DNA of 35,926 bases. Source: an uncultured Clostridia bacterium. Its GTDB lineage: Bacteria > Bacillota > Clostridia > Christensenellales > UBA1242. The stretch is taken from the NCBI GenBank assembly GCA_944384485.1, contig CALWTO010000032.1, positions 1-35,926 of the forward strand. The letters run 5' to 3'. How positions within the stretch are numbered: position 1 is the stretch's first letter; each line of letters opens with the position of its first letter. The notes beneath the pieces are model-generated. The model was not told the DNA's origin. It made no database searches and saw nothing but the letters and a program-made list of their open reading frames with translations. Below are positions 11,576 to 29,885 of the stretch, one piece after another. The position numbers and the translations under genes were made by a program.

Positions 11576-12001
11576 TTAACTCATCTTTTTTACTCGTCTT
11601 GCGTGTCTACCGCCTTCAAAATCTGTAGTCAAAAATATTTTAACTATTTTTATCGCTTTTTTAGGTTTTGTAAATCTTCCACCCAAACATAAAACATTTG
11701 CATCATTGTGCATACGCGCAAGAGAAGCATCCGTTTCGTTTCTACATAAAGCCGCTCTTATTTTAGGATTGCGATTAGCAGCCATACTCATACCAATTCC
11801 TGAACCACAAACATAAATACCAACATTTCTAGGATCTTCAAGAACTTTAATATTTCCTGCTTTGGCAAAATCAGGATAGTCATCAACCTGTTCTCTAGAA
11901 TAGCATCCAACATCAATAGCAATTATATTTTCTTTGTTAAAAAATTTTTTTATTTCTTCCTTTAAAAGATAACCTGCATGGTCACTTGCTAAAATAATCA
12001 T
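11576..12001 (-). CDS. rpiB: Ribose-5-phosphate isomerase B
   Basis: SDHAG, DYPD, CGSGIGMSMAAN, HNDANVLCLGGR and FEGGRH.RR. Confidence 0.97.
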   Translation of the reverse strand: MIILASDHAGYLLKEEIKKFFNKENIIAIDVGCYSREQVDDYPDFAKAGNIKVLEDPRNVGIYVCGSGIGMSMAANRNPKIRAALCRNETDASLARMHNDANVLCLGGRFTKPKKAIKIVKIFLTTDFEGGRHARRVKKMS

Positions 12002-12426
12002 AATTTTCTCCCCGCTTCAATTTTATTTAAAAGTATCTTAATGCCTTTATCAATCTCATTTAAAGTTTTTTCATAAACTTCTTCATCTTTTCCATAAGGA
12101 TCAATGATAGGCTCACCAATTAAATCTTCAAAACTTAAAACCTTGCTAGAATTAATAAATTTTTTCATATTGTTGTTCATAACAACATATAAAGTATTTT
12201 TATCAATTTTTCCAAGTTTTACACTTTTTCTATTAGAAGAAAGTGCTTGATGTTTTTTTAAAACTTTTTTTGCATTTTCTGCAATATTTTCGCCATTTGA
12301 TTGTAATCCTCGAGATAAAACTTTTAAATCATTTAATTGATTTTCTTTAATGTACTTTTTTGTCAATCTCTCAGCCATTATAGAACGACAAGTATTGCCA
12401 GAACATATAAAGCAAATTTTAATCAT
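11998..12426 (-). CDS. Low-molecular-weight protein tyrosine/arginine phosphatase (YwlE-like)
   Basis: CSGNTCRS P-loop and IDPYG; the position upstream of rpiB is the usual Bacillota context. Confidence 0.9.
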   Translation of the reverse strand: MIKICFICSGNTCRSIMAERLTKKYIKENQLNDLKVLSRGLQSNGENIAENAKKVLKKHQALSSNRKSVKLGKIDKNTLYVVMNNNMKKFINSSKVLSFEDLIGEPIIDPYGKDEEVYEKTLNEIDKGIKILLNKIEAGRKL

Positions 12427-12508
12427 TGTTTTTTCTCACTTTGAAATAGTTTAACATAAATAAAGAAAAAAACAAAAGATTTTGACAAATTTACAAATAA
12501 TAAAATAA

Positions 12509-12537
12509 AAAACTGCTTTGAATCGCAAAACAGTTTT
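12509..12537 (-). terminator. Possible terminator after rsfS
   Basis: Imperfect AAAACTG...CAGTTTT inverted repeat. Confidence 0.4.
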
Positions 12538-12907
12538 ATTTTTTTTCTTTCTTTTTAGTATTAACTTTTTTCTTGCCTACTACTTCTTTAATTATTCCTT
12601 CCACTTTTTCTTTTTGCCAAAGTTTTTCAAGATTAAACTTTTCTCGTACGTTAGGAATAAAACAATTTAAAATGATATCATTAAAGTCAAATACTATCCA
12701 TTCTCCTTTGCTGTATCCTTCAGGAAAACCTTCAAGTTTAAAATCATTTATAATTTTATCTGCAAGTTTTTTATTTTCAATAACGTTTGGTAATGAAGCA
12801 ACAATTATGTTGCAATCTTGCCCATCAATTGTTGTTTTAAAAATCGCTATATCTTTACATTTTTGTTCTATAAGGTATTGATGAAAATTTTGAATTATAG
12901 TTTCCAC
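12536..12907 (-). CDS. rsfS: Ribosome silencing factor RsfS/Iojap (divergent)
   Basis: EG...GEWIVFDFNDIILNCF....REKFNLEKLW matches the RsfS C-terminal signature; GTG start. Confidence 0.8.
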   Translation of the reverse strand: METIIQNFHQYLIEQKCKDIAIFKTTIDGQDCNIIVASLPNVIENKKLADKIINDFKLEGFPEGYSKGEWIVFDFNDIILNCFIPNVREKFNLEKLWQKEKVEGIIKEVVGKKKVNTKKKEKK

Positions 12908-12938
12908 AAAGCCCCCTTTGTAAATTTAATCTTTAACT

Positions 12939-12967
12939 AATATAGTACACAAAAAAAAATTTGTCAA
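12939..12967 (-). promoter_or_regulatory. Sigma-A promoter of rsfS
   Basis: TTGACA, 17 nt, TATATT. Confidence 0.65.
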
Positions 12968-13008
12968 ATTTTTTGTCTAATTTTAAAATTTCTGTCAATA
13001 AAAAATAT

Positions 13009-13815
13009 ATGAAAGTTATGTTAAAGGTATTACAATTGTTAATTAAAGCAAGCATAATATTTAGTTTATTTTTTATTTGGTTAAGATTTTATATAACTCC
13101 TGCGTGGAAAACAATAAGTTTAGCAATATTTTTCACCATAGTATTAATGCTTATTCTTTCAAATTTTGAAAAAAACAAAAAGACAAAAATTTTCTTAAAA
13201 ACAAAAGAGCAACAAGAGGCAGAACAAATGTTTGAATTTCTTATAAAAAACCAAGATTTTAATTTTTTTTATAACCTTGCTAAACAAAGAAACTCAAATA
13301 TTGAAAGCCACAAAAGTTTTCAAACAATAATTACACAAGAAAATAATAAAATAATTTTATATCCGCATCTTAAAATACAATCATTGAACAAAGATGAAGT
13401 TATAAAAATTGTTACAAAATTAAAAAAATATTCAAAAGATAAATTGGTGATTTGTTGCAACTCGTATGAAAAAGATATAGAAAATTTTACAAAACAATTT
13501 GATTTTGAGATATTAGTTCTTGACAAATATTCAACTTATCAATATCTATTTAAAGAATATGATTTTTACCCAAACATACCAACAAAAATTGAAAAATCTA
13601 CCAAAACAAAATTAAAAGAAATAATAGATTATTCCTTTAGCAAAAGCAAAGCAAAATCTTACTTTTTTTCAGCAATCTTTTTACTTGCCATAAGTTTCAC
13701 AATAAACACAAATTTATACTATTGTATAATTGCATCAATTTTAACAATGTTTTCTCTTATATGTCTTTTAAAACCAACAAAAAAACAACAAAAAATTTCA
13801 AATATCTTTTTATAA
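13009..13815 (+). CDS. Hypothetical membrane protein (2 TM, soluble domain, 2 TM), possibly an inactive Mrr/restriction-endonuclease-like fold
   Basis: Hydrophobic pairs at both ends. LVICCNSYEKDIENFTKQFDFEILVLD recalls the C-terminal strands of Mrr_cat. Start uncertain (12961 TTG, 13009 or 13018 ATG). Confidence 0.6.
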   Translation: MKVMLKVLQLLIKASIIFSLFFIWLRFYITPAWKTISLAIFFTIVLMLILSNFEKNKKTKIFLKTKEQQEAEQMFEFLIKNQDFNFFYNLAKQRNSNIESHKSFQTIITQENNKIILYPHLKIQSLNKDEVIKIVTKLKKYSKDKLVICCNSYEKDIENFTKQFDFEILVLDKYSTYQYLFKEYDFYPNIPTKIEKSTKTKLKEIIDYSFSKSKAKSYFFSAIFLLAISFTINTNLYYCIIASILTMFSLICLLKPTKKQQKISNIFL

Positions 13816-13953
13816 AAATTAAAAAATCACTTTTTTATCTTTACTTAAATATTTATTTTTAGTTTGTAAATTTTCTTATACTTATTTTTTTAATAGCGTT
13901 ATTCATTTATAAACAATTATAATTAAATTAATCATTTTTTTTAACTAAATTAT

Positions 13954-13979
13954 AAAAACTGCACAACGTGCAGTCTTTT
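13954..13979 (-). terminator. Intrinsic terminator of the WG-repeat unit
   Basis: ACTGCAC-GTT-GTGCAGT-TTTT on the minus strand. Confidence 0.8.
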
Positions 13980-14079
13980 ATTTTTCGTTTAAATGTTTTT
14001 TTATAAAATTATTATCAAAAAAATCTTCTATTAAATTAATTAATTGTTTTTTATTTTTTTCAAGTTCTTCTTTTTCCAT
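13978..14079 (-). CDS. Putative 33-aa small protein, absent from the ORF track
   Basis: SD AAGGAG overlaps the upstream stop. Reads MEKEELEKNKKQLINLIEDFFDNNFIKKHLNEK*, and its stop abuts the terminator. Confidence 0.55.
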   Translation of the reverse strand: MEKEELEKNKKQLINLIEDFFDNNFIKKHLNEK

Positions 14080-14142
14080 AAAATCTCCTTATGCAAAAAA
14101 GTTATCTATCTCATTCGAAAAATTGTTTTTTATTTTTTTCAA
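14042..14142. repeat. 22-bp exact direct repeat with 79-bp period
   Basis: AATTGTTTTTTATTTTTTTCAA occurs at 14042-14063 and 14121-14142. Confidence 0.75.
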
Positions 14143-15372
14143 ATCTTCTTCTCTTTCTTCTTTCATTTTACTAAAAAATTTTCCCAATTGCTCTTTAACT
14201 TTTGTATTTTTTTCTTCTATTAAATTCATTATATCTCTAACATAATTGGTTTCAGATTTTAATTCAGTATGATTGTCTACTTCTATTATTCTTTTTTTCA
14301 ATTTTTCTTTTATGATATTGTTAACTCTGGAAATAAATTCTTCATCTTCAAATTTATGAAAAGGTATATATTTATACATATATTGTTTCTCCGTTATATA
14401 CTCTTCCCATTCATTATTACTTAAGCACAAATTTCCTTCCTTATCAACACTGGTCAAACGATCATCTTCTAATTTAACATTTGCAAATCCTTCTTTATAA
14501 TCTTCAGCAAATTTAAATCTACCTTCTTGAAGTTTGCTATTTTCATCAATGTATCCCCAAGTAAATTCATCAAGTTTTACTGCAGCAAAACCTTCACTAA
14601 AATTATCTATATACTCAAATTTCCCTTCTTGTATTTTTCCTTGTTTATCAATAATAACCCAATTATTATTTTCTAATTTTACAATAGCATGTCCGTTGTG
14701 AAAATCGTGGACAGCTTCATATCGCCCTTCTTGAAGATTTCCATTTTTATCTATAAAACCCCACTTTCCATCATCTAATTGAACTGCAGCAAAGCCTTCA
14801 TGATAACTAGAAACATTATCAAACACACCATTTTGAAGATTTCCTTCTTTGTTTATAAAATACCATTTTTTATTTTGAGCTTGTACAGCGGCAAAACCTT
14901 CGCTGTAATCAAGAGCTTGAATATACCTGCCATCTTGAATATTTCCATGAATATCTATAAAAGCATAATTAACTTTAATAGAAGGCCATTTCCCCTCTCT
15001 TATTTTAACTGCAGCAAAACCTTCATGAAAATTACGAACTGTTTCATATGGCACTTCTATTAATCGTCCCTCTTTGTCAGCAAAGGCACACTTTCCACCT
15101 TTTAAACGAACAGCAGAAAAACCTTCGTTGTAGCTATTGGCAAATTCATACTCTCCATCTAAAAGCCTTCCCTCTTTGTTAATAAAAGAATATTTTCCAT
15201 CTTGTCTTTGAACAACTGCAAAACCTTCGCTAAAACTTTCAGCTTTTTTATATCTTCCTTCTAAAAGTTTTCCATAGGTATCCATAAATGCCCACTCATC
15301 ATTATCTAGCAAAACTCGAGCCAAACCTTCTTTATACTCATAAATTTTTTTAATTCCATTTGCTATTCTCAT
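14089..15372 (-). CDS. WG (KWG-Leptospira-type) repeat protein with helical C-terminal domain
   Basis: Nine units of about 34 aa with consensus (F/Y).EGFA.V....GKW.FI.K.G.LQ.G.(Y/F). No signal peptide. Confidence 0.9.
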   Translation of the reverse strand: MRIANGIKKIYEYKEGLARVLLDNDEWAFMDTYGKLLEGRYKKAESFSEGFAVVQRQDGKYSFINKEGRLLDGEYEFANSYNEGFSAVRLKGGKCAFADKEGRLIEVPYETVRNFHEGFAAVKIREGKWPSIKVNYAFIDIHGNIQDGRYIQALDYSEGFAAVQAQNKKWYFINKEGNLQNGVFDNVSSYHEGFAAVQLDDGKWGFIDKNGNLQEGRYEAVHDFHNGHAIVKLENNNWVIIDKQGKIQEGKFEYIDNFSEGFAAVKLDEFTWGYIDENSKLQEGRFKFAEDYKEGFANVKLEDDRLTSVDKEGNLCLSNNEWEEYITEKQYMYKYIPFHKFEDEEFISRVNNIIKEKLKKRIIEVDNHTELKSETNYVRDIMNLIEEKNTKVKEQLGKFFSKMKEEREEDLKKIKNNFSNEIDNFFA

Positions 15373-24009: not shown

Positions 24010-25422
24010 TTATTTATAAAATTTTCTTTTTTCTTCAATAATAGAATCTATTCTGTCGCAATAATCATTAATAAATTTTACATTGTGTTGTCTTTCAATT
24101 CTATTTTCAAGATTAAAAACTCTTTTGCTCATTGCTCCTGCACCCACTCCAATAACAGTGTTTGTTTCTTCCATGCTGTCAATGTTGAATTTACAAACAA
24201 AATCATCTCTAAAATAGCCTACATTTTCAAGCCCGCCAAGTTGATTTTTTTGCCTGTACATATAGTAAGGTTTGTAACCATTTTCGGCTAACAAATCATG
24301 AGCAAAATCCATCATTTTATTAATATCTTTTGTATCTATTATTTCTGTTTGGTCTTTTAATTGCGCACCTCTTTTTACAGACAAAGTGTGCACTGTTATA
24401 TTGTGAGGATAAAGTTCAATTAAAGTTTTGCAAGTCTTTTTAAAAGTTCCTAGTTTCTCCATTGGTAAACCTGCAATAACATCCATATTTACAATAAAAC
24501 CTCTTTCAAGAGCCATTGTATACGCATCAAAAATTTGTTTGTTTGTATGACTTCTACCAATTCTTTTTAAAGTTGTTTGAGAAAACGTTTGTGGATTTAT
24601 AGAAATTCTTGTGACACCATATTTCTTTAAAATATCAAGTTTAGATGAAGTTATGGTGTCCGCCCTTCCACATTCAACTGTTTTTTCATCAACAGAAAAG
24701 TTAAGCATTTGCATAAGCCTTTCAAGTTGATTATCATTTAAAACAGAAGGAGTGCCACCACCCACATAAATAGTCCTGACTATGTAAGCCTTGTTAAAAA
24801 TAATTTTCTTTACTGCTTGAATTTCCTTTTCAAGACAATCTAAATATTTATTGACTTTTTCTTCCCCAAGCGAAGATAATTGATGAGAAATAAAAGAACA
24901 ATAAAGACACCTTGTTGGACAAATTGGAATATTTACATATAAATCTATAAGGTTGTCGTTTCTTATAATACATTTTTGATTTTTCAAAATGTTTGCAACA
25001 AGTTTGGCTTTTTGTGGCGAAACATAAAACATATTTTGCAAAGTTTCACATACAAGATATTCTTTAGCTTGCCCTTTTTCTATCATATCTCTTATCAGTT
25101 TTGTTGGCCTAACTCCTGTTAAAGAACCCCAAGGCAACTGAATTTTTAATTCTTTGCTTAAAATCGAATATAAATGATTTTTTACCATTTTTTTAATAAG
25201 AGATTTTTTTTCAAGGTCACTTAAATTTTCATCTAAATTATAACTAAAACTGTATTGTTTTTCTTCATTTGTAAAAGTGTTCTTAAAAACAAATTGATTA
25301 ACAACCATAGTTGAATTTCTTTGCTCATCATGTATTATTTCTATTTCTTCATGAGTTCCAAACAAATTAGCCAAATCTTGCAATTCAATTTGCAATTCTT
25401 CTCTATTAGTTTTAATTACCAT
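24010..25422 (-). CDS. hemZ: Radical SAM HemZ (HemN-like) protein
   Basis: PWGSLTGVRPTK, CPTRCLYC, YVGGGTPS, RISINPQT and PYYMYRQK; downstream of rel. Confidence 0.92.
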   Translation of the reverse strand: MVIKTNREELQIELQDLANLFGTHEEIEIIHDEQRNSTMVVNQFVFKNTFTNEEKQYSFSYNLDENLSDLEKKSLIKKMVKNHLYSILSKELKIQLPWGSLTGVRPTKLIRDMIEKGQAKEYLVCETLQNMFYVSPQKAKLVANILKNQKCIIRNDNLIDLYVNIPICPTRCLYCSFISHQLSSLGEEKVNKYLDCLEKEIQAVKKIIFNKAYIVRTIYVGGGTPSVLNDNQLERLMQMLNFSVDEKTVECGRADTITSSKLDILKKYGVTRISINPQTFSQTTLKRIGRSHTNKQIFDAYTMALERGFIVNMDVIAGLPMEKLGTFKKTCKTLIELYPHNITVHTLSVKRGAQLKDQTEIIDTKDINKMMDFAHDLLAENGYKPYYMYRQKNQLGGLENVGYFRDDFVCKFNIDSMEETNTVIGVGAGAMSKRVFNLENRIERQHNVKFINDYCDRIDSIIEEKRKFYK

Positions 25423-27524
25423 TTTTCACTCCTATAAACATCTGTAACATTCTTTAAAGTTTTTATAGAAGATATAACCTTTTGAAGTTCTGCGGTGTTT
25501 TTTACTTCTATTGTGATAAAACAATCAAAAATATCACCAATATCTTTGGCTTCAAATCCACGAATAGGAAGTTTCATGTTTGTTATAAGAGTTGTAAGTT
25601 TTGCAATGTTGTTGTCTGCTTTATCAGCAATAACTTTAAGTGTCGCAAGGAAAGATGCGTTTTCTCTTTCTTGCCATTGTGCCCCAATCAATCTTTCTGG
25701 CTCAAGATATTTAATGTTTGGACAATTATGTCTATGAATTGTAACCCCTTTTCCTCTCGAAATGTAACCTATAATTTCGTCACCTTCAATTGGAGAGCAA
25801 CAACCCGCAAATCTAACTAAAAGTCCACTATCGCCGTCAATCAAAACACCTTCTTTATTCTTTTTTAAATGAACAACATTTGTTGAAATTTTTTCAATTT
25901 TATGATCTCTATTCCAATAAGCAATAAGCCTGCCTGCAACTTGACCAGCAGAGAGTGAGCCACATCCTATAGCTGCATACAATTCATCTTCATTTTCAAA
26001 ATTAAATTTAGCAAATATTTCTTTTAAATAGTCATTATTTAATAATTGCGAAGGAACAAAATTTTTATCTTGCAATAGTTCAACTAAAATGCTTTTACCA
26101 ATCTTTATGTTTTCTTCTTTCATTTCAGATTTGAAGAAAGCCCTTATTTTGGATTTAGTATTGTTGCATCTAACAAAATTAAGCCAATCTCTAGAAGGGC
26201 CTTTTGATTGTGTTGAAGTAATTATTTCAACTATATCACCATTTGCTAACGGAGTGTTTAAAGGCTTCATTTTTTGATTAATTTTTGCACCAACACAAGT
26301 ATTACCAACATCAGTATGAATTGCATAAGCAAAATCTATTGCTGTTGCCCCTTCAGGAAATTCTATAACTCTCCCCTTTGGTGTTTGAACGAATATAATT
26401 CCGTCATATAAATCGCTCTTTAATGTGTTTATAAAGTCATCATTTGACATGTTTTTTGCATTTTCAACGGTTTCTCTAAACCATGTCATTCTGCTGTCTA
26501 ATTCATCTTTTTTATTCTTTTTTTCTTTGTATAACCAATGTGCACAAACTCCACCATATTCAGATTCCCTGTGCATTTCGTATGTTCTTATTTGTATTTC
26601 CATTGGATGTTGGTTTTCAACAATAATAGTTGTGTGTAAAGATTTATAGCCATTTGGTTTTGGGTTTGCTATATAATCTTTAACTCTTCCAGCCATAGGC
26701 TTATAAATAGCATGGACTCTACCAAGCACGGCATAACACTCTTCAACTGTTTCGACAATCACACGCATTGCAATAATATCATATATTTGATTTAATCTTA
26801 AATTTTTGCTATGCAACTTGTTGTAAATAGAAGATATATGTTTTTGTCTAGCAACAATTTCGCCTTTTATATTCAAATCTTTCAATATAGCATAAATTTT
26901 CGATTTTGAAATTGTAAGTTGTTTTTCATTTTCTTCGTATTTACTTTGAACCGACTCTTTTAACCTTTGGAATTCTTCTGGATGTAAAAGTCTTATAACA
27001 TTATCTGCCAAATCTTGTTTTAATTTGTCAAACCCCAATCTTTCAGATAAAGGCACATGGATTTCTTCAACTTGTTTTACAAATCTTCTTTGCGCCTCAG
27101 TCAAAGGCAATTCCAAAATTGAGATATCATAGCAAATTCCTGCAAGTTTGATAAAAACCACACGCATATCTTTGCTCATGGCTACAAACATTCTTTTTAT
27201 ATCTTCAATTTCTTCACTTAAAGTCAACTGACTTATATCTTTTATTACCTTATAAGTTTCAACCATTTCAATAGCATCAGTAGTAAGTTCTTTTTCAATC
27301 TTTTCCGCTTTTTCTTCATCTACTTTGAAAAGTTGGTATGTCAAAAAAGCGAGAAGAGAATCTTTGTCTATATTCATGTCAATAATTAAATCAACAATAA
27401 AAGCAACCCTTTTTAAATTCATTTTTCCACAAATGATATCTTCAATAAGCGTTTTATCTTTCTCTTTTATATAATCTAGATTATAAATTTTTTCTTTTAT
27501 TTCGTTTATGAGATTAGTCTCCAT
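25416..27524 (-). CDS. relA: Long RelA/SpoT homologue with intact synthetase, TGS, ZFD and ACT domains but a degenerate HD hydrolase domain
   Basis: RQKHISSIY.K, YDIIAMRVIV, RVKDYIANPKPNGYKSLHT, EIQIRT, TGS DFAYAIHT and ZFD CC.P..GD/HR.NC are present. The HDxxED position reads YQLFKV. Confidence 0.93.
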   Translation of the reverse strand: METNLINEIKEKIYNLDYIKEKDKTLIEDIICGKMNLKRVAFIVDLIIDMNIDKDSLLAFLTYQLFKVDEEKAEKIEKELTTDAIEMVETYKVIKDISQLTLSEEIEDIKRMFVAMSKDMRVVFIKLAGICYDISILELPLTEAQRRFVKQVEEIHVPLSERLGFDKLKQDLADNVIRLLHPEEFQRLKESVQSKYEENEKQLTISKSKIYAILKDLNIKGEIVARQKHISSIYNKLHSKNLRLNQIYDIIAMRVIVETVEECYAVLGRVHAIYKPMAGRVKDYIANPKPNGYKSLHTTIIVENQHPMEIQIRTYEMHRESEYGGVCAHWLYKEKKNKKDELDSRMTWFRETVENAKNMSNDDFINTLKSDLYDGIIFVQTPKGRVIEFPEGATAIDFAYAIHTDVGNTCVGAKINQKMKPLNTPLANGDIVEIITSTQSKGPSRDWLNFVRCNNTKSKIRAFFKSEMKEENIKIGKSILVELLQDKNFVPSQLLNNDYLKEIFAKFNFENEDELYAAIGCGSLSAGQVAGRLIAYWNRDHKIEKISTNVVHLKKNKEGVLIDGDSGLLVRFAGCCSPIEGDEIIGYISRGKGVTIHRHNCPNIKYLEPERLIGAQWQERENASFLATLKVIADKADNNIAKLTTLITNMKLPIRGFEAKDIGDIFDCFITIEVKNTAELQKVISSIKTLKNVTDVYRSEKW

Positions 27525-27527
27525 GAC

Positions 27528-29885
27528 TTATTCTCCTTTATATAATTTTTTTAAAGATGAAAAATTTTTATAAATACCTGACTGATTAAGTTCCCTTTTA
27601 ACCTTTTTATTTAAATAAATCACAATTTGTTCTTCATCTACAATTTTTATAATTCCAAGTTGATTAAAAACTAAAAGTGCTACATAGAAAGTTGAAAATG
27701 AAATTTTTTGCGAAAAATTCGATTTATCGTAAAGTTCAAATACATTATAAACAGCCTTTCCAACCTTTGTAGAAAGATATTTGTAAATGTGAGCATATGT
27801 TTCCCTTGATAAATCTATACCGCTAAACTTTCTTAAATCTCCATTTTTCTCAACTGGAAGAAAAATTTGAGCTTTTGAAACCTTGTTTAAAGCAGAAATG
27901 AATTTTGTATCTAACACAGGTGTCAAAAAAACAATATTTGAAAAATTCTTTGCCCAATTAACTCCTTTTGGAGCAAGTAAAAGGCTGTTGTAACCACTTT
28001 CTTTGTCCCCATAAATATTAAAATTGTAAATACCTTGTGTGTTGTAATTTTTTGCAAATTCAATGTAGTCGTAACATGAGTAAGCAACAAAACAAGTTCC
28101 AAATATTGTAGTTGTTGTCTTGCTTACAAATTCAAGCAAATCTTTTTGTGGGTAAAGTTTGTAATTTGCTTCACCTTTCCCATCAATAACAAGTTGACTA
28201 AGTTCAATAGAATTAAGTTTTTTATATGCATCTTCTACAATAAAACTTCCGCCGTCAAACTCATCAACAATGGCTTTTGTCCCAGAACCTTGAAATTCAA
28301 AAATAAAAGATTTAGTCCTTGCAAAAGACATTTTTACCATTTTGTCCATGCAGTTAAAATAAGTTAATGAAAAATCGCCAATTTTTATATTAGCATGTTG
28401 AGGAAATTTTCTCATAGGCAAAACTTCAATTTCGCTAGCACTTATTTTAAATTTTGGACGAGGATTATCACAACCAAAAGGCTCTAGTATAGCAAGTTCT
28501 TTTACAAATTCATTTGTAATTTCTTTTTCTGTTATTTCTTGGTCATAATATTTTATCGGCATAAAAACTTCATCACTTATGTGATTTAAAGCAAAGGAGT
28601 TTATTTTTTGAACAAACTCTTCATAGTTTTCTCTTTTAAGGCTTAATCCTGCAGCCATAGAATGTCCACCAAAGGTTTCCAAAATATCTTTTAATGAGGA
28701 CAACAATTGATGAATGTTAATATCATCAATGCTTCTTCCAGAACCACTTAAAATATCCCCCTCTTGAGCGAATAAAAACACGGGCTTATGATATTTTTCT
28801 ACCAATCTTGAGCAAACAATTCCAAGCACTCCTTTATCCCAAGACTTTGAAGCCAAAGAAATAACTCTTAAAGACAGCAAATCCATTTTAGAAAGAGCTT
28901 TTTCACAGTCTTCAAAAATTTTGTTGCAAATTTCCTGCCTTTTAGTATTGTGATTTTTAATTTTATCAATAATTTTAATAATTTTAACAGGGTCTGTTTC
29001 CAAATATAATTTTAATGAATCTTCAGCATCTCCCATTCTTCCTGGAGCATTAAGTTTTGGACCAATTTTGAATGATATATCTATAGAGTTTGGCTTTGCA
29101 AGCGAAATATCATATTCTTTAAACATCATTTTAAGACCAATAGGAAGATAACGCTCACACAATTTCAACCCTTTTGTAACTATTGTTCTGTTTTCATTCA
29201 ACAAAGGAACTATATCAACTATTGTTGCAATGGCACAAATTGGCAAAAACTGTTCTGCTTCAGTTTTTCCAAGAAGAGCTTCAGCAAATTTGAAAGCCAC
29301 TCCCGTTCCACACAGTTCTCTAAAAGGATAATCTTGATTTGGCATCTTTGCATTTACAATTACTGTGTTTGGCAAAACCTCAGGTATTTCATGGTGATCT
29401 GTCACAAAAACTTCAATACCTTTATTTTTGGCATATTCAACTTCTTCATGACAAGAAATGCCACAATCAACTGTAATAATTAAATTAGGACAAAATTTTT
29501 GATAAATTTTGTCAATCACATTTTTGGTTAAACCATAACCATCTTCATATCTATTTGGTAAATAATAATCAGCCTTTATGCCAAAAATTTTAAGTGCTTT
29601 TAACATAATTGCTGTTGCACTTACACCATCAACATCATAGTCGCCAAATATAAGGACTTTGTCCCCCAATTCTTTTGCAAGAAAAACCCTATCCAACAGT
29701 TCTTTCATTCCTTTCAGCATAAAAGGGTCATGAAAAACAGATGGATTTAAAAACTCAATAATATCCTCTCTGCTGGCAACTCCTCTAGATAACAATAATT
29801 CACAAACACGACGATTTAGTCCTAATTCCTTTGTAAATAAATCTACCTTGTCAGCATTCTTATTAAAAAACTTTCTAAATATCAT
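27528..29885 (-). CDS. recJ: ssDNA exonuclease RecJ
   Basis: GDYDVDG, TVDCG, TDHH, GSGRS, GGH.MAAG and LEPFG. Confidence 0.96.
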   Translation of the reverse strand: MIFRKFFNKNADKVDLFTKELGLNRRVCELLLSRGVASREDIIEFLNPSVFHDPFMLKGMKELLDRVFLAKELGDKVLIFGDYDVDGVSATAIMLKALKIFGIKADYYLPNRYEDGYGLTKNVIDKIYQKFCPNLIITVDCGISCHEEVEYAKNKGIEVFVTDHHEIPEVLPNTVIVNAKMPNQDYPFRELCGTGVAFKFAEALLGKTEAEQFLPICAIATIVDIVPLLNENRTIVTKGLKLCERYLPIGLKMMFKEYDISLAKPNSIDISFKIGPKLNAPGRMGDAEDSLKLYLETDPVKIIKIIDKIKNHNTKRQEICNKIFEDCEKALSKMDLLSLRVISLASKSWDKGVLGIVCSRLVEKYHKPVFLFAQEGDILSGSGRSIDDINIHQLLSSLKDILETFGGHSMAAGLSLKRENYEEFVQKINSFALNHISDEVFMPIKYYDQEITEKEITNEFVKELAILEPFGCDNPRPKFKISASEIEVLPMRKFPQHANIKIGDFSLTYFNCMDKMVKMSFARTKSFIFEFQGSGTKAIVDEFDGGSFIVEDAYKKLNSIELSQLVIDGKGEANYKLYPQKDLLEFVSKTTTTIFGTCFVAYSCYDYIEFAKNYNTQGIYNFNIYGDKESGYNSLLLAPKGVNWAKNFSNIVFLTPVLDTKFISALNKVSKAQIFLPVEKNGDLRKFSGIDLSRETYAHIYKYLSTKVGKAVYNVFELYDKSNFSQKISFSTFYVALLVFNQLGIIKIVDEEQIVIYLNKKVKRELNQSGIYKNFSSLKKLYKGE

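Follow-up and report, generated by a model that had tools for sequence, protein, structure and literature searches.

A predicted synthetase-only Rel at the recJ-rel-hemZ locus of reduced-genome Clostridia

In the beta- and gamma-proteobacteria the roles of the bifunctional Rel are divided between RelA, which only synthesises, and SpoT, which carries the hydrolase, and a looser parallel to this division exists in Bacteroidia. Here we describe a rel gene from an uncultured member of Clostridia (family UBA1242, order Christensenellales; assembly GCA_944384485.1), located in a stretch of 35,926 nucleotides, contig CALWTO010000032.1, which as a whole is called the window below. Its product is a long RelA/SpoT homologue (RSH) that has kept the motifs for (p)ppGpp synthesis and has lost those for (p)ppGpp hydrolysis. 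The survey by Atkinson et al. (2011, PMC3153485) lists Firmicutes as having Rel[HS] together with small synthetases, confines RelA[hS] to beta- and gamma-proteobacteria, and describes RshB of Bacteroidia as a second copy with an HD domain diverged in a way "similar to that for RelA". According to a published rule, no bacterium has RelA[hS] or a small alarmone synthetase (SAS) alone. Other studies count 13 long-RSH subfamilies (Jimmy et al. 2020, PMC7229694) and deal with the pseudo-HD domain of RelA in its role of regulatory switch (PMC8012599), a hydrolase-only SpoT of Acinetobacter baumannii (PMC9974481), Nudix over-expression in Escherichia coli (PMC7593582), and NahA and pGpp (PMC7584652). 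Our literature searches turned up neither a Bacillota Rel with a dead hydrolase nor bacteria that are [hS]-only; the supplementary tables of RSH surveys could list such cases.

The gene and its parts lie in the window as follows:
25416..27524, minus strand: rel[hS], a 702-residue long RSH, predicted to be hydrolase-dead and synthetase-intact (open reading frame, TIGR00691 and five Pfam domains)
26955..27524, minus strand: pseudo-HD domain, residues 1-190 (HD_4 match at 27033-27410; motif blocks lost; ratio of nonsynonymous to synonymous substitution rates, dN/dS, 0.06-0.20; helical in the AlphaFold2 model)
27321..27344, minus strand: LTYQLFKV replacing LLHDxxED, residues 61-68 (phmmer alignment, motif table, residue positions)
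27126..27149, minus strand: KLAGICYD replacing KLADRLHN, residues 126-133 (phmmer alignment, motif table, residue positions)
26517..26849, minus strand: synthetase domain, RelA_SpoT, residues 226-336 (129 bits; motifs intact, and invariant in 35 dead-HD homologues)
26676..26687, minus strand: RVKD (RxKD, Rel/SpoT type), residues 280-283 (motif table; EFDD in E. coli RelA)
26217..26396, minus strand: TGS domain, residues 377-436 (81 bits; the best-conserved domain in the genus, mean identity 0.71)
25707..26159, minus strand: AH/RIS region, residues 456-606 (RelA_AH_RIS, 37.5 bits)
25719-25805, minus strand: conserved-cysteine zinc-finger stretch within the AH/RIS region (cysteine motif located)
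25431..25661, minus strand: ACT/RRM domain, residues 622-698 (ACT_4, 52.9 bits)

The protein belongs to the long RSHs, with 538.1 bits against TIGR00691 (RelA/SpoT subfamily, NCBIfam; cut-off 499.2) and five Pfam domains, HD_4, RelA_SpoT, TGS, RelA_AH_RIS and ACT_4, all above their cut-offs. It remains below the narrower models: the RelA equivalog NF008124 (GTP diphosphokinase) gives 416.4 bits against a cut-off of 728, and the SpoT equivalog NF008303 gives 466.5 bits against 947, the HD motifs being lost as well. The score on the small alarmone synthetase model NF053588 is 35 bits (cut-off 320), and the YjbM/RelQ type, a single-domain protein of about 200 residues, differs plainly from this chain of 702 residues and five domains. 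A longer or missed N-terminus is ruled out, because the recJ stop codon lies 3 nucleotides 5' of the rel ATG, which has AAGGAG just 5' of it.

None of the hydrolase motifs of bifunctional Rel[HS] (HxGQxRxSGEPYxxHP, HDxxED and KLADRxHN) is found in this protein, the first block being absent and the other two replaced. The HD_4 match (residues 39-164, 59.8 bits) is limited to profile positions 23-154. The phmmer alignment with Bacillus subtilis Rel (6yxa) opens at query residue 43 and Rel residue 57; within it "fltyqlfkv" faces "flhdvved" and "iklagicyd" faces "ikladrlhn". Throughout the 702 residues there is not a single occurrence of H.GQ, of GEPY or of an HD pair, and residues 1-190 have only two His left, 156 and 181. 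In the RelSeq structure, the His and Asp positions that are lost here provide the Mn ligands and catalytic residues. The synthetase motifs of Rel[HS], RxKD included, are all present, namely RQKH, YDIIAMR, RVKDYIANPKPNGYKSLHT, EIQIRT and AHWLYKE (residues 328-334), the third of these comprising the RVKDYI..PKPNGYKSLHT pattern. An earlier sequence-only reading of the window had held that all recognisable hydrolase motifs were gone while the scaffold, the synthetase and the C-terminal domains were intact, and that the synthetase carried the RxKD of Rel and SpoT and not the ExDD of RelA. Both statements are borne out by the loss of the three blocks, by the other motifs and Pfam domains, and by the EFDD of E. 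coli RelA in the same columns as RVKD; the residue positions given there for LTYQLFKV and KLAGICYD are exact.

The Rel protein is maintained in the genus and its synthetase is constrained. In an alignment of 35 N-terminal halves with a dead HD domain, every catalytic-motif position of the synthetase is invariant (the invariant columns include R226, K228, D249, R254, K282, D283, H297, E309, Q311 and R313). Over the 300 pairs formed by the 25 genus sequences, identity averages 0.43 in the pseudo-HD domain, 0.64 in the synthetase, 0.71 in TGS, 0.59 in AH-RIS and 0.41 in ACT, and in the four pairs with a finite dS the dN/dS ratio is 0.06-0.20 for the pseudo-HD domain and 0.03-0.09 for the synthetase. 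In the pseudo-HD domain 18 of 190 columns are invariant in the genus. An AlphaFold2 model of residues 1-375, built from the alignment of the 35 halves, has a mean predicted local distance difference test (pLDDT) score of 88.2 and a helical pseudo-HD domain. The best Foldseek matches of this model are Rel N-terminal structures spanning both domains over 334-367 columns, headed by 8acu (E 1e-18, 337 columns) and followed by 7oiw, 6yxa, 6s2t and 1vj7, with E. coli RelA (5iqr) after them. By substitution rates and model, the dead domain is under purifying selection and has been retained as a folded helical module.

The hydrolase-dead Rel is a trait of the whole genus and of most of a large family of reduced genomes (74 or more genera, with no genome outside 0.7-1.6 Mb), well beyond the one genome of the window. 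All 24 congeners drawn gave a Rel match, as did 16 of 16 genomes that represent as many other families of the order. Congener alignments to the window Rel begin at residue 1-19, those of 14 of the 16 other-family genomes only at about residue 41-46, the exceptions being G034 (from 33) and G032 (from 31). Motif tables, in part from a mafft --auto alignment, have the first HD block deleted in 25/25 genus rows, all of which read L.[YF]Q... where LLHDxxED is expected and K[LF]..[IL].[YF]D where KLADRLHN is expected. In the other families of the order all three hydrolase blocks are intact in 15/15 Rel rows. The 28 family loci L056-L083 comprise 22 with a dead HD domain, one partly degenerate (L078) and five intact. 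Further dead-HD forms in the family are full-length (L088, L089), split (G144, G131) or N-terminal-only (317 residues, G139), and further intact ones are L087, L090, L103, L105 and L047, with HD1 and HD2 partly altered in L104. Synthetase motifs are kept in every dead-HD row, and the TGS, AH/RIS, zinc-finger and ACT domains are likewise conserved throughout the lineage. A word-based search with residues 1-220 yielded 98 protein clusters with identities of at least 50%, below which there is a sharp fall to 32% or less, and the dead domain thus marks a discrete clade.

Some variant forms were met along the way. In L092 (G144, contig C26) and L093 (G131, contig C13) the dead-HD Rel is divided between adjacent frames, one of 230-271 residues for the pseudo-HD domain and one of about 450 for synthetase to ACT, for which a frameshift, an assembly error or a real two-gene form is possible. 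The family also has an ACT-less Rel of about 600 residues. In one genus genome, G081, a canonical intact Rel of 737 residues (L047, contig C88, 6 kb) stands beside the dead-HD Rel; the listed contamination of G081 is 6%, the contig is a short one, and L047 may come from another organism of the family.

The immediate neighbours of rel in the window are two genes on the same strand:
27528..29885, minus strand: recJ, directly 5' of rel (DHH, DHHA1 and RecJ_OB domains; adjoins rel in 24 of 24 genus loci)
24010..25422, minus strand: hemZ-like radical SAM gene, with a 7-nucleotide overlap with the rel stop (TIGR03994, 448 bits, cut-off 321; adjoins rel in 24 of 24 genus loci)

The native recJ-rel-hemZ locus announced by the sequence-only reading is confirmed by the RecJ domains and the HemZ score. 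Apart from the genus loci, both genes adjoin rel in 16 further family loci, and they stand beside an intact Rel in five of the six order loci with 1.5-kb flanks (loci with flanks of about 1 kb are uninformative and are omitted from these counts). The intact-HD family loci L070 and L076 are likewise at the recJ-hemZ locus. The wider gene order is dnaG-rpoD-...-recJ-rel-hemZ-rpsO-pnp.

Phylogenetic analysis used the synthetase and C-terminal columns only, with the HD columns excluded, in a quick IQ-TREE search over 65 rows, which left out 14 of the 25 genus rows and all fragments; one E. coli RelA and one SpoT served as outgroup. All 35 dead-HD rows lie on one side of a single branch, with 88 in the Shimodaira-Hasegawa-like approximate likelihood ratio test (SH-aLRT). 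A second group holds the intact-HD long RSHs of the family together with L086 (SH-aLRT 91), and a third the 15 Rel proteins of the order's other families (SH-aLRT 95, starred). This tree does not resolve the branching order among the three groups. The RSH phylogeny suggested by the sequence-only reading groups the dead-HD rows together.

The same reading had placed a separate hydrolase outside the window and had suggested a genome-wide HD-domain search. In the host assembly (contig C32 being the window; 805 kb, 55 contigs, 88% complete), PF13328 at E<=1 matched only the Rel gene, as did PF04607, and tblastn queries taken from congeners, 15 extra HD_4 proteins plus one canonical Rel, gave no hydrolase-domain match outside rel. 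Among the 101 genomes of the genus, 35 have an HD_4 match above cut-off besides Rel and 66 have none, the latter including two without any match and one with an ambiguous fragment (G098); 24 of the 66 are listed at 98-100% completeness. The expectation of a separate hydrolase is hence supported for the 35 congeners and for the closest relative found, and is not borne out in the host assembly or in at least 24 congeners at 98-100%. Sixteen HD_4 proteins extracted from 13 of the 35 genomes (15 extra and one canonical Rel) all have HDxxED. They are small alarmone hydrolases of 177-314 residues, HD_4+TGS proteins of about 480 residues, and the canonical 737-residue Rel of G081. The proteins of about 480 residues (L039:1024-2478, minus strand; L040:1534-2973, plus strand; L041, 478 residues; L138:6889-8319, minus strand) consist of an intact HD_4, a middle part of some 120-190 residues without detectable synthetase motifs, and then TGS. 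In an HD-domain tree they cluster with the long RSHs of the family and not with the small hydrolases (support 85-91, on a long branch), and such a protein looks like a truncated, hydrolase-only long RSH.

A dead-HD Rel was verified in 28 family genomes, and 18 of these have an HD_4 match outside Rel; such matches begin at profile position 1-6 and are counted by profile match, not by motifs. The ten without one (G123, G147, G168, G141, G145, G155, G129, G144, G131 and G089) are 90-100% complete. In G165 a dead-HD Rel (L082, contig C2) is accompanied by a 717-residue RSH (L086:901-3051, plus strand, contig C1) with intact HD motifs and destroyed synthetase motifs, and judged by these motifs the pair would represent a full RelA/SpoT-like division of labour inside Clostridia. 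L086 resembles the hydrolase-only A. baumannii SpoT[Hs] (PMC9974481), as do the HD+TGS proteins; the HD+TGS form differs in having no C-terminal half past TGS, and hydrolase-only partners of this kind were not found in the window's genome. In the family sample of 60 genomes 20 have no Rel match, many of these being 96-99% complete; five genomes have an HD_4 protein but no Rel, and 15 have neither (76-99% complete). The stringent-response toolkit is undergoing piecemeal loss in the family.

The closest relative found, L108 of genome G176 (about 1.0 Mb), has a Rel 90% identical to that of the window and carries a 477-residue HD+TGS gene. The neighbourhood of this gene matches contig C27 of the host assembly on both flanks, at 74.5% and 77% DNA identity. 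Between them C27:2062-2568 (minus strand) encodes a 169-residue P-loop (kinase-like) protein, instead of the HD+TGS gene and a 323-residue HTH-like gene (L138:6889-9277), and tblastn of the G176 HD+TGS protein against C27 gave nothing below E 1. With both flanks assembled and no match, the HD+TGS gene is therefore absent from its expected place.

Other routes of alarmone degradation were considered. Of the three Nudix genes in the host genome one is NrtR-like; the 157-residue one, which alone of the three was profiled across congeners, was rejected as a general replacement, with homologues in 33/101 congeners only. Extra HD_4 is also present in 12 of 32 relatives with a homologue, and there is thus no relation between Nudix and HD_4. 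In two of five complete congeners without extra HD_4, G006 (99%) and G094 (100%), no Nudix domain was detected; the Rel of G094 is dead-HD with intact synthetase motifs, and that of G006 (L022) is dead-HD. A conserved 195-residue HD protein (host contig C5) was likewise set aside: it occurs in 45/60 family genomes regardless of Rel, with 63-66% identical orthologues in four of the five complete congeners, and is missing from some dead-HD-only genomes, hence no specific link. Ppx/GppA (host C21:23405-24235, plus strand) is present in 59/60 family genomes regardless of Rel and acts on the 5' phosphate only, and for these reasons is not a specific answer either. Among the candidates tested, none gave a general alternative route. 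A Ppx/GppA-family gene of about 500 residues is retained even in family genomes without any RSH.

The gene most probably encodes an [hS] form in the sense of Atkinson et al., a Rel-derived long RSH that has become monofunctional and would only synthesise (p)ppGpp. Such a protein would sit on the ribosome via its C-terminal domains and sense deacylated tRNA, like RelA and Rel, and would make (p)ppGpp from ATP and GTP or GDP, the pseudo-HD domain possibly serving the synthetase in a structural or allosteric way and doing nothing more. The hydrolase would have been lost once, in situ at recJ-rel-hemZ, in the ancestor of the large reduced-genome clade. Where trans-acting HD_4 hydrolases are present (small hydrolases, the HD+TGS protein of about 480 residues, or a hydrolase-only long RSH), alarmone degradation may have passed to them. 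Genomes without detectable HD_4 might remove the alarmone by dilution under a tightly gated, low synthesis, or might have an unrecognised hydrolase.

In an alternative scenario the gene was acquired from a RelA-bearing proteobacterium and its dead hydrolase did not evolve independently, which we regard as very unlikely. The resemblance is real: RelA[hS] of beta- and gamma-proteobacteria (5iqr, 5kps) is also a long RSH that keeps a dead HD domain next to an intact synthetase and ends in a tail of TGS, helical, zinc-finger and ACT domains, and a hydrolase-competent RSH partner exists in some relatives of the dead-HD Rel too. The phmmer scores are alike as well (E. coli RelA 389 bits, B. subtilis Rel 399), and the approximately unbiased (AU) test keeps a clade of dead-HD Rel and E. 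coli RelA at p 0.056. However, the 399 bits come from a B. subtilis chain of merely 562 residues, in the free tree E. coli RelA falls elsewhere and forcing the clade costs 28.3 log-likelihood units, and 416 bits on NF008124 (cut-off 728) is lower than the 466 of the SpoT model. The motif is RxKD and not ExDD, and the HD-block replacements are unrelated to those of E. coli RelA (LTYQLFKV versus LLFPLADA, KLAGICYD versus KLAERIAH). The recJ-hemZ locus is that of intact Rel in the order's other families, and many dead-HD Rel genomes have no SpoT-like partner at all. To Rel[HS] of Bacillota (6yxa/8acu, 7oiw, 1vj7) the protein is joined by its best sequence and structure matches, domain order and RxKD, and to that of related Clostridia by gene neighbourhood; it differs in having none of the three hydrolase blocks and an N-terminus some 14 residues shorter than in B. 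subtilis Rel, to judge from the alignment offset. RshB of Bacteroidia is a further Rel-derived long RSH outside Proteobacteria with a RelA-like diverged HD domain, but accompanies an intact Rel[HS] as a second copy, whereas the dead-HD Rel holds the native locus and is often the sole RSH. The near-rejection in the AU test, together with motifs, synteny and family scores, argues for convergence, and a separate origin of this RelA-like enzyme from Rel within Clostridia is well supported by sequence, conservation, fold, distribution and synteny, the phylogenetic test itself being near significance but not decisive. The convergence proposed by the sequence-only reading gains from the single dead-HD group and from the intact Rel at the same locus in other families; its weaker part is that a clade with E. 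coli RelA is not formally rejected.

Could the gene be a decaying or non-catalytic relic, neither activity of which matters in a lineage shedding its stringent response? The Rel-less genomes (20/60 in the family, many 96-99% complete) and the split (G144, G131), ACT-less and N-terminal-only forms would fit this, but the frame is open and full-length in 25/25 genus orthologues, dN/dS is far below 1 in every domain, and the synthetase catalytic motifs are invariant over 35 dead-HD sequences; we think it quite unlikely. That the degenerate domain still hydrolyses (p)ppGpp via a non-canonical active site seems extremely unlikely. The domain is conserved, with its 18 invariant columns, and folded in the model, but the first motif block is wholly deleted, other residues stand in place of the HD pair and the KLADR Asp in 25/25 genus sequences, two His are left in residues 1-190, and Atkinson et al. 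(2011, PMC3153485) list E. coli RelA, whose losses are comparable, among the monofunctional synthetases. An ordinary system of two enzymes, a RelA-like synthetase and a hydrolase that merely went unassembled, is unlikely. A hydrolase copy may lie elsewhere in the missing 12% of this assembly of 55 contigs and 805 kb, extra HD_4 occurs in 35/101 congeners, and the closest relative found has the HD+TGS gene. Against this, profile and tblastn searches reach only rel in the host genome, the HD+TGS locus is assembled with both flanks on C27 and holds the 169-residue P-loop gene, and 24 congeners at 98-100% completeness likewise show only the Rel match. A bolder reading, somewhat less likely than not, is that a sizeable group of free-standing genomes, among them this one and 99-100% complete congeners such as G006 and G094, has a ribosome-type (p)ppGpp synthetase without an RSH-type hydrolase, the alarmone being degraded by an undescribed enzyme or the stringent response being one-way and reset by dilution.

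Several points weigh against the interpretation as a Rel-derived synthetase-only enzyme. Both the death of the hydrolase and the activity of the synthetase are predicted from motifs only, and the metal-ligand roles of the lost residues are carried over from RelSeq. A synthetase without a hydrolase is expected to be toxic, so that an [hS] form on its own speaks for either a hydrolase that escaped detection or a weak synthetase. The host genome is 88% complete and all genomes compared are metagenome-assembled. In the tree, a quick search, the dead-HD clade with SH-aLRT 88 is under the starred level, and E. coli RelA falls on a long branch within the order's Rel group, a placement which is not credible and thus shows the limits of two outgroup sequences; the AU test (28.3 log-likelihood units, p-AU 0.056) involved a single RelA.

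Elsewhere in the window, G+C content dips to 0.22 at 12001-14000, against about 0.30 in the remainder. A 284-residue frame (12961-13815, plus strand) has no Pfam match, and the adjacent 427-residue frame (14089-15372, minus strand) has WG_beta_rep repeats.

The partner hydrolase is real in many relatives and was found neither here nor in many near-complete congeners, which is the most interesting point of this analysis. The [hS]-alone genomes, if truly such, would break the rule that no bacterium has RelA[hS] or SAS alone. The RelA/SpoT-like outcome is now seen inside Clostridia as well, in a lineage of 0.7-1.6 Mb genomes that covers almost all conceivable RSH repertoires: an intact Rel, a dead-HD Rel that stands alone or beside either a small hydrolase or a hydrolase-only long RSH, a hydrolase alone, and nothing. 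This series is natural material on the uncoupling of (p)ppGpp synthesis from degradation and on the purpose of the pseudo-hydrolase, and with it the question of what else degrades (p)ppGpp becomes testable via comparative genomics and simple complementation.

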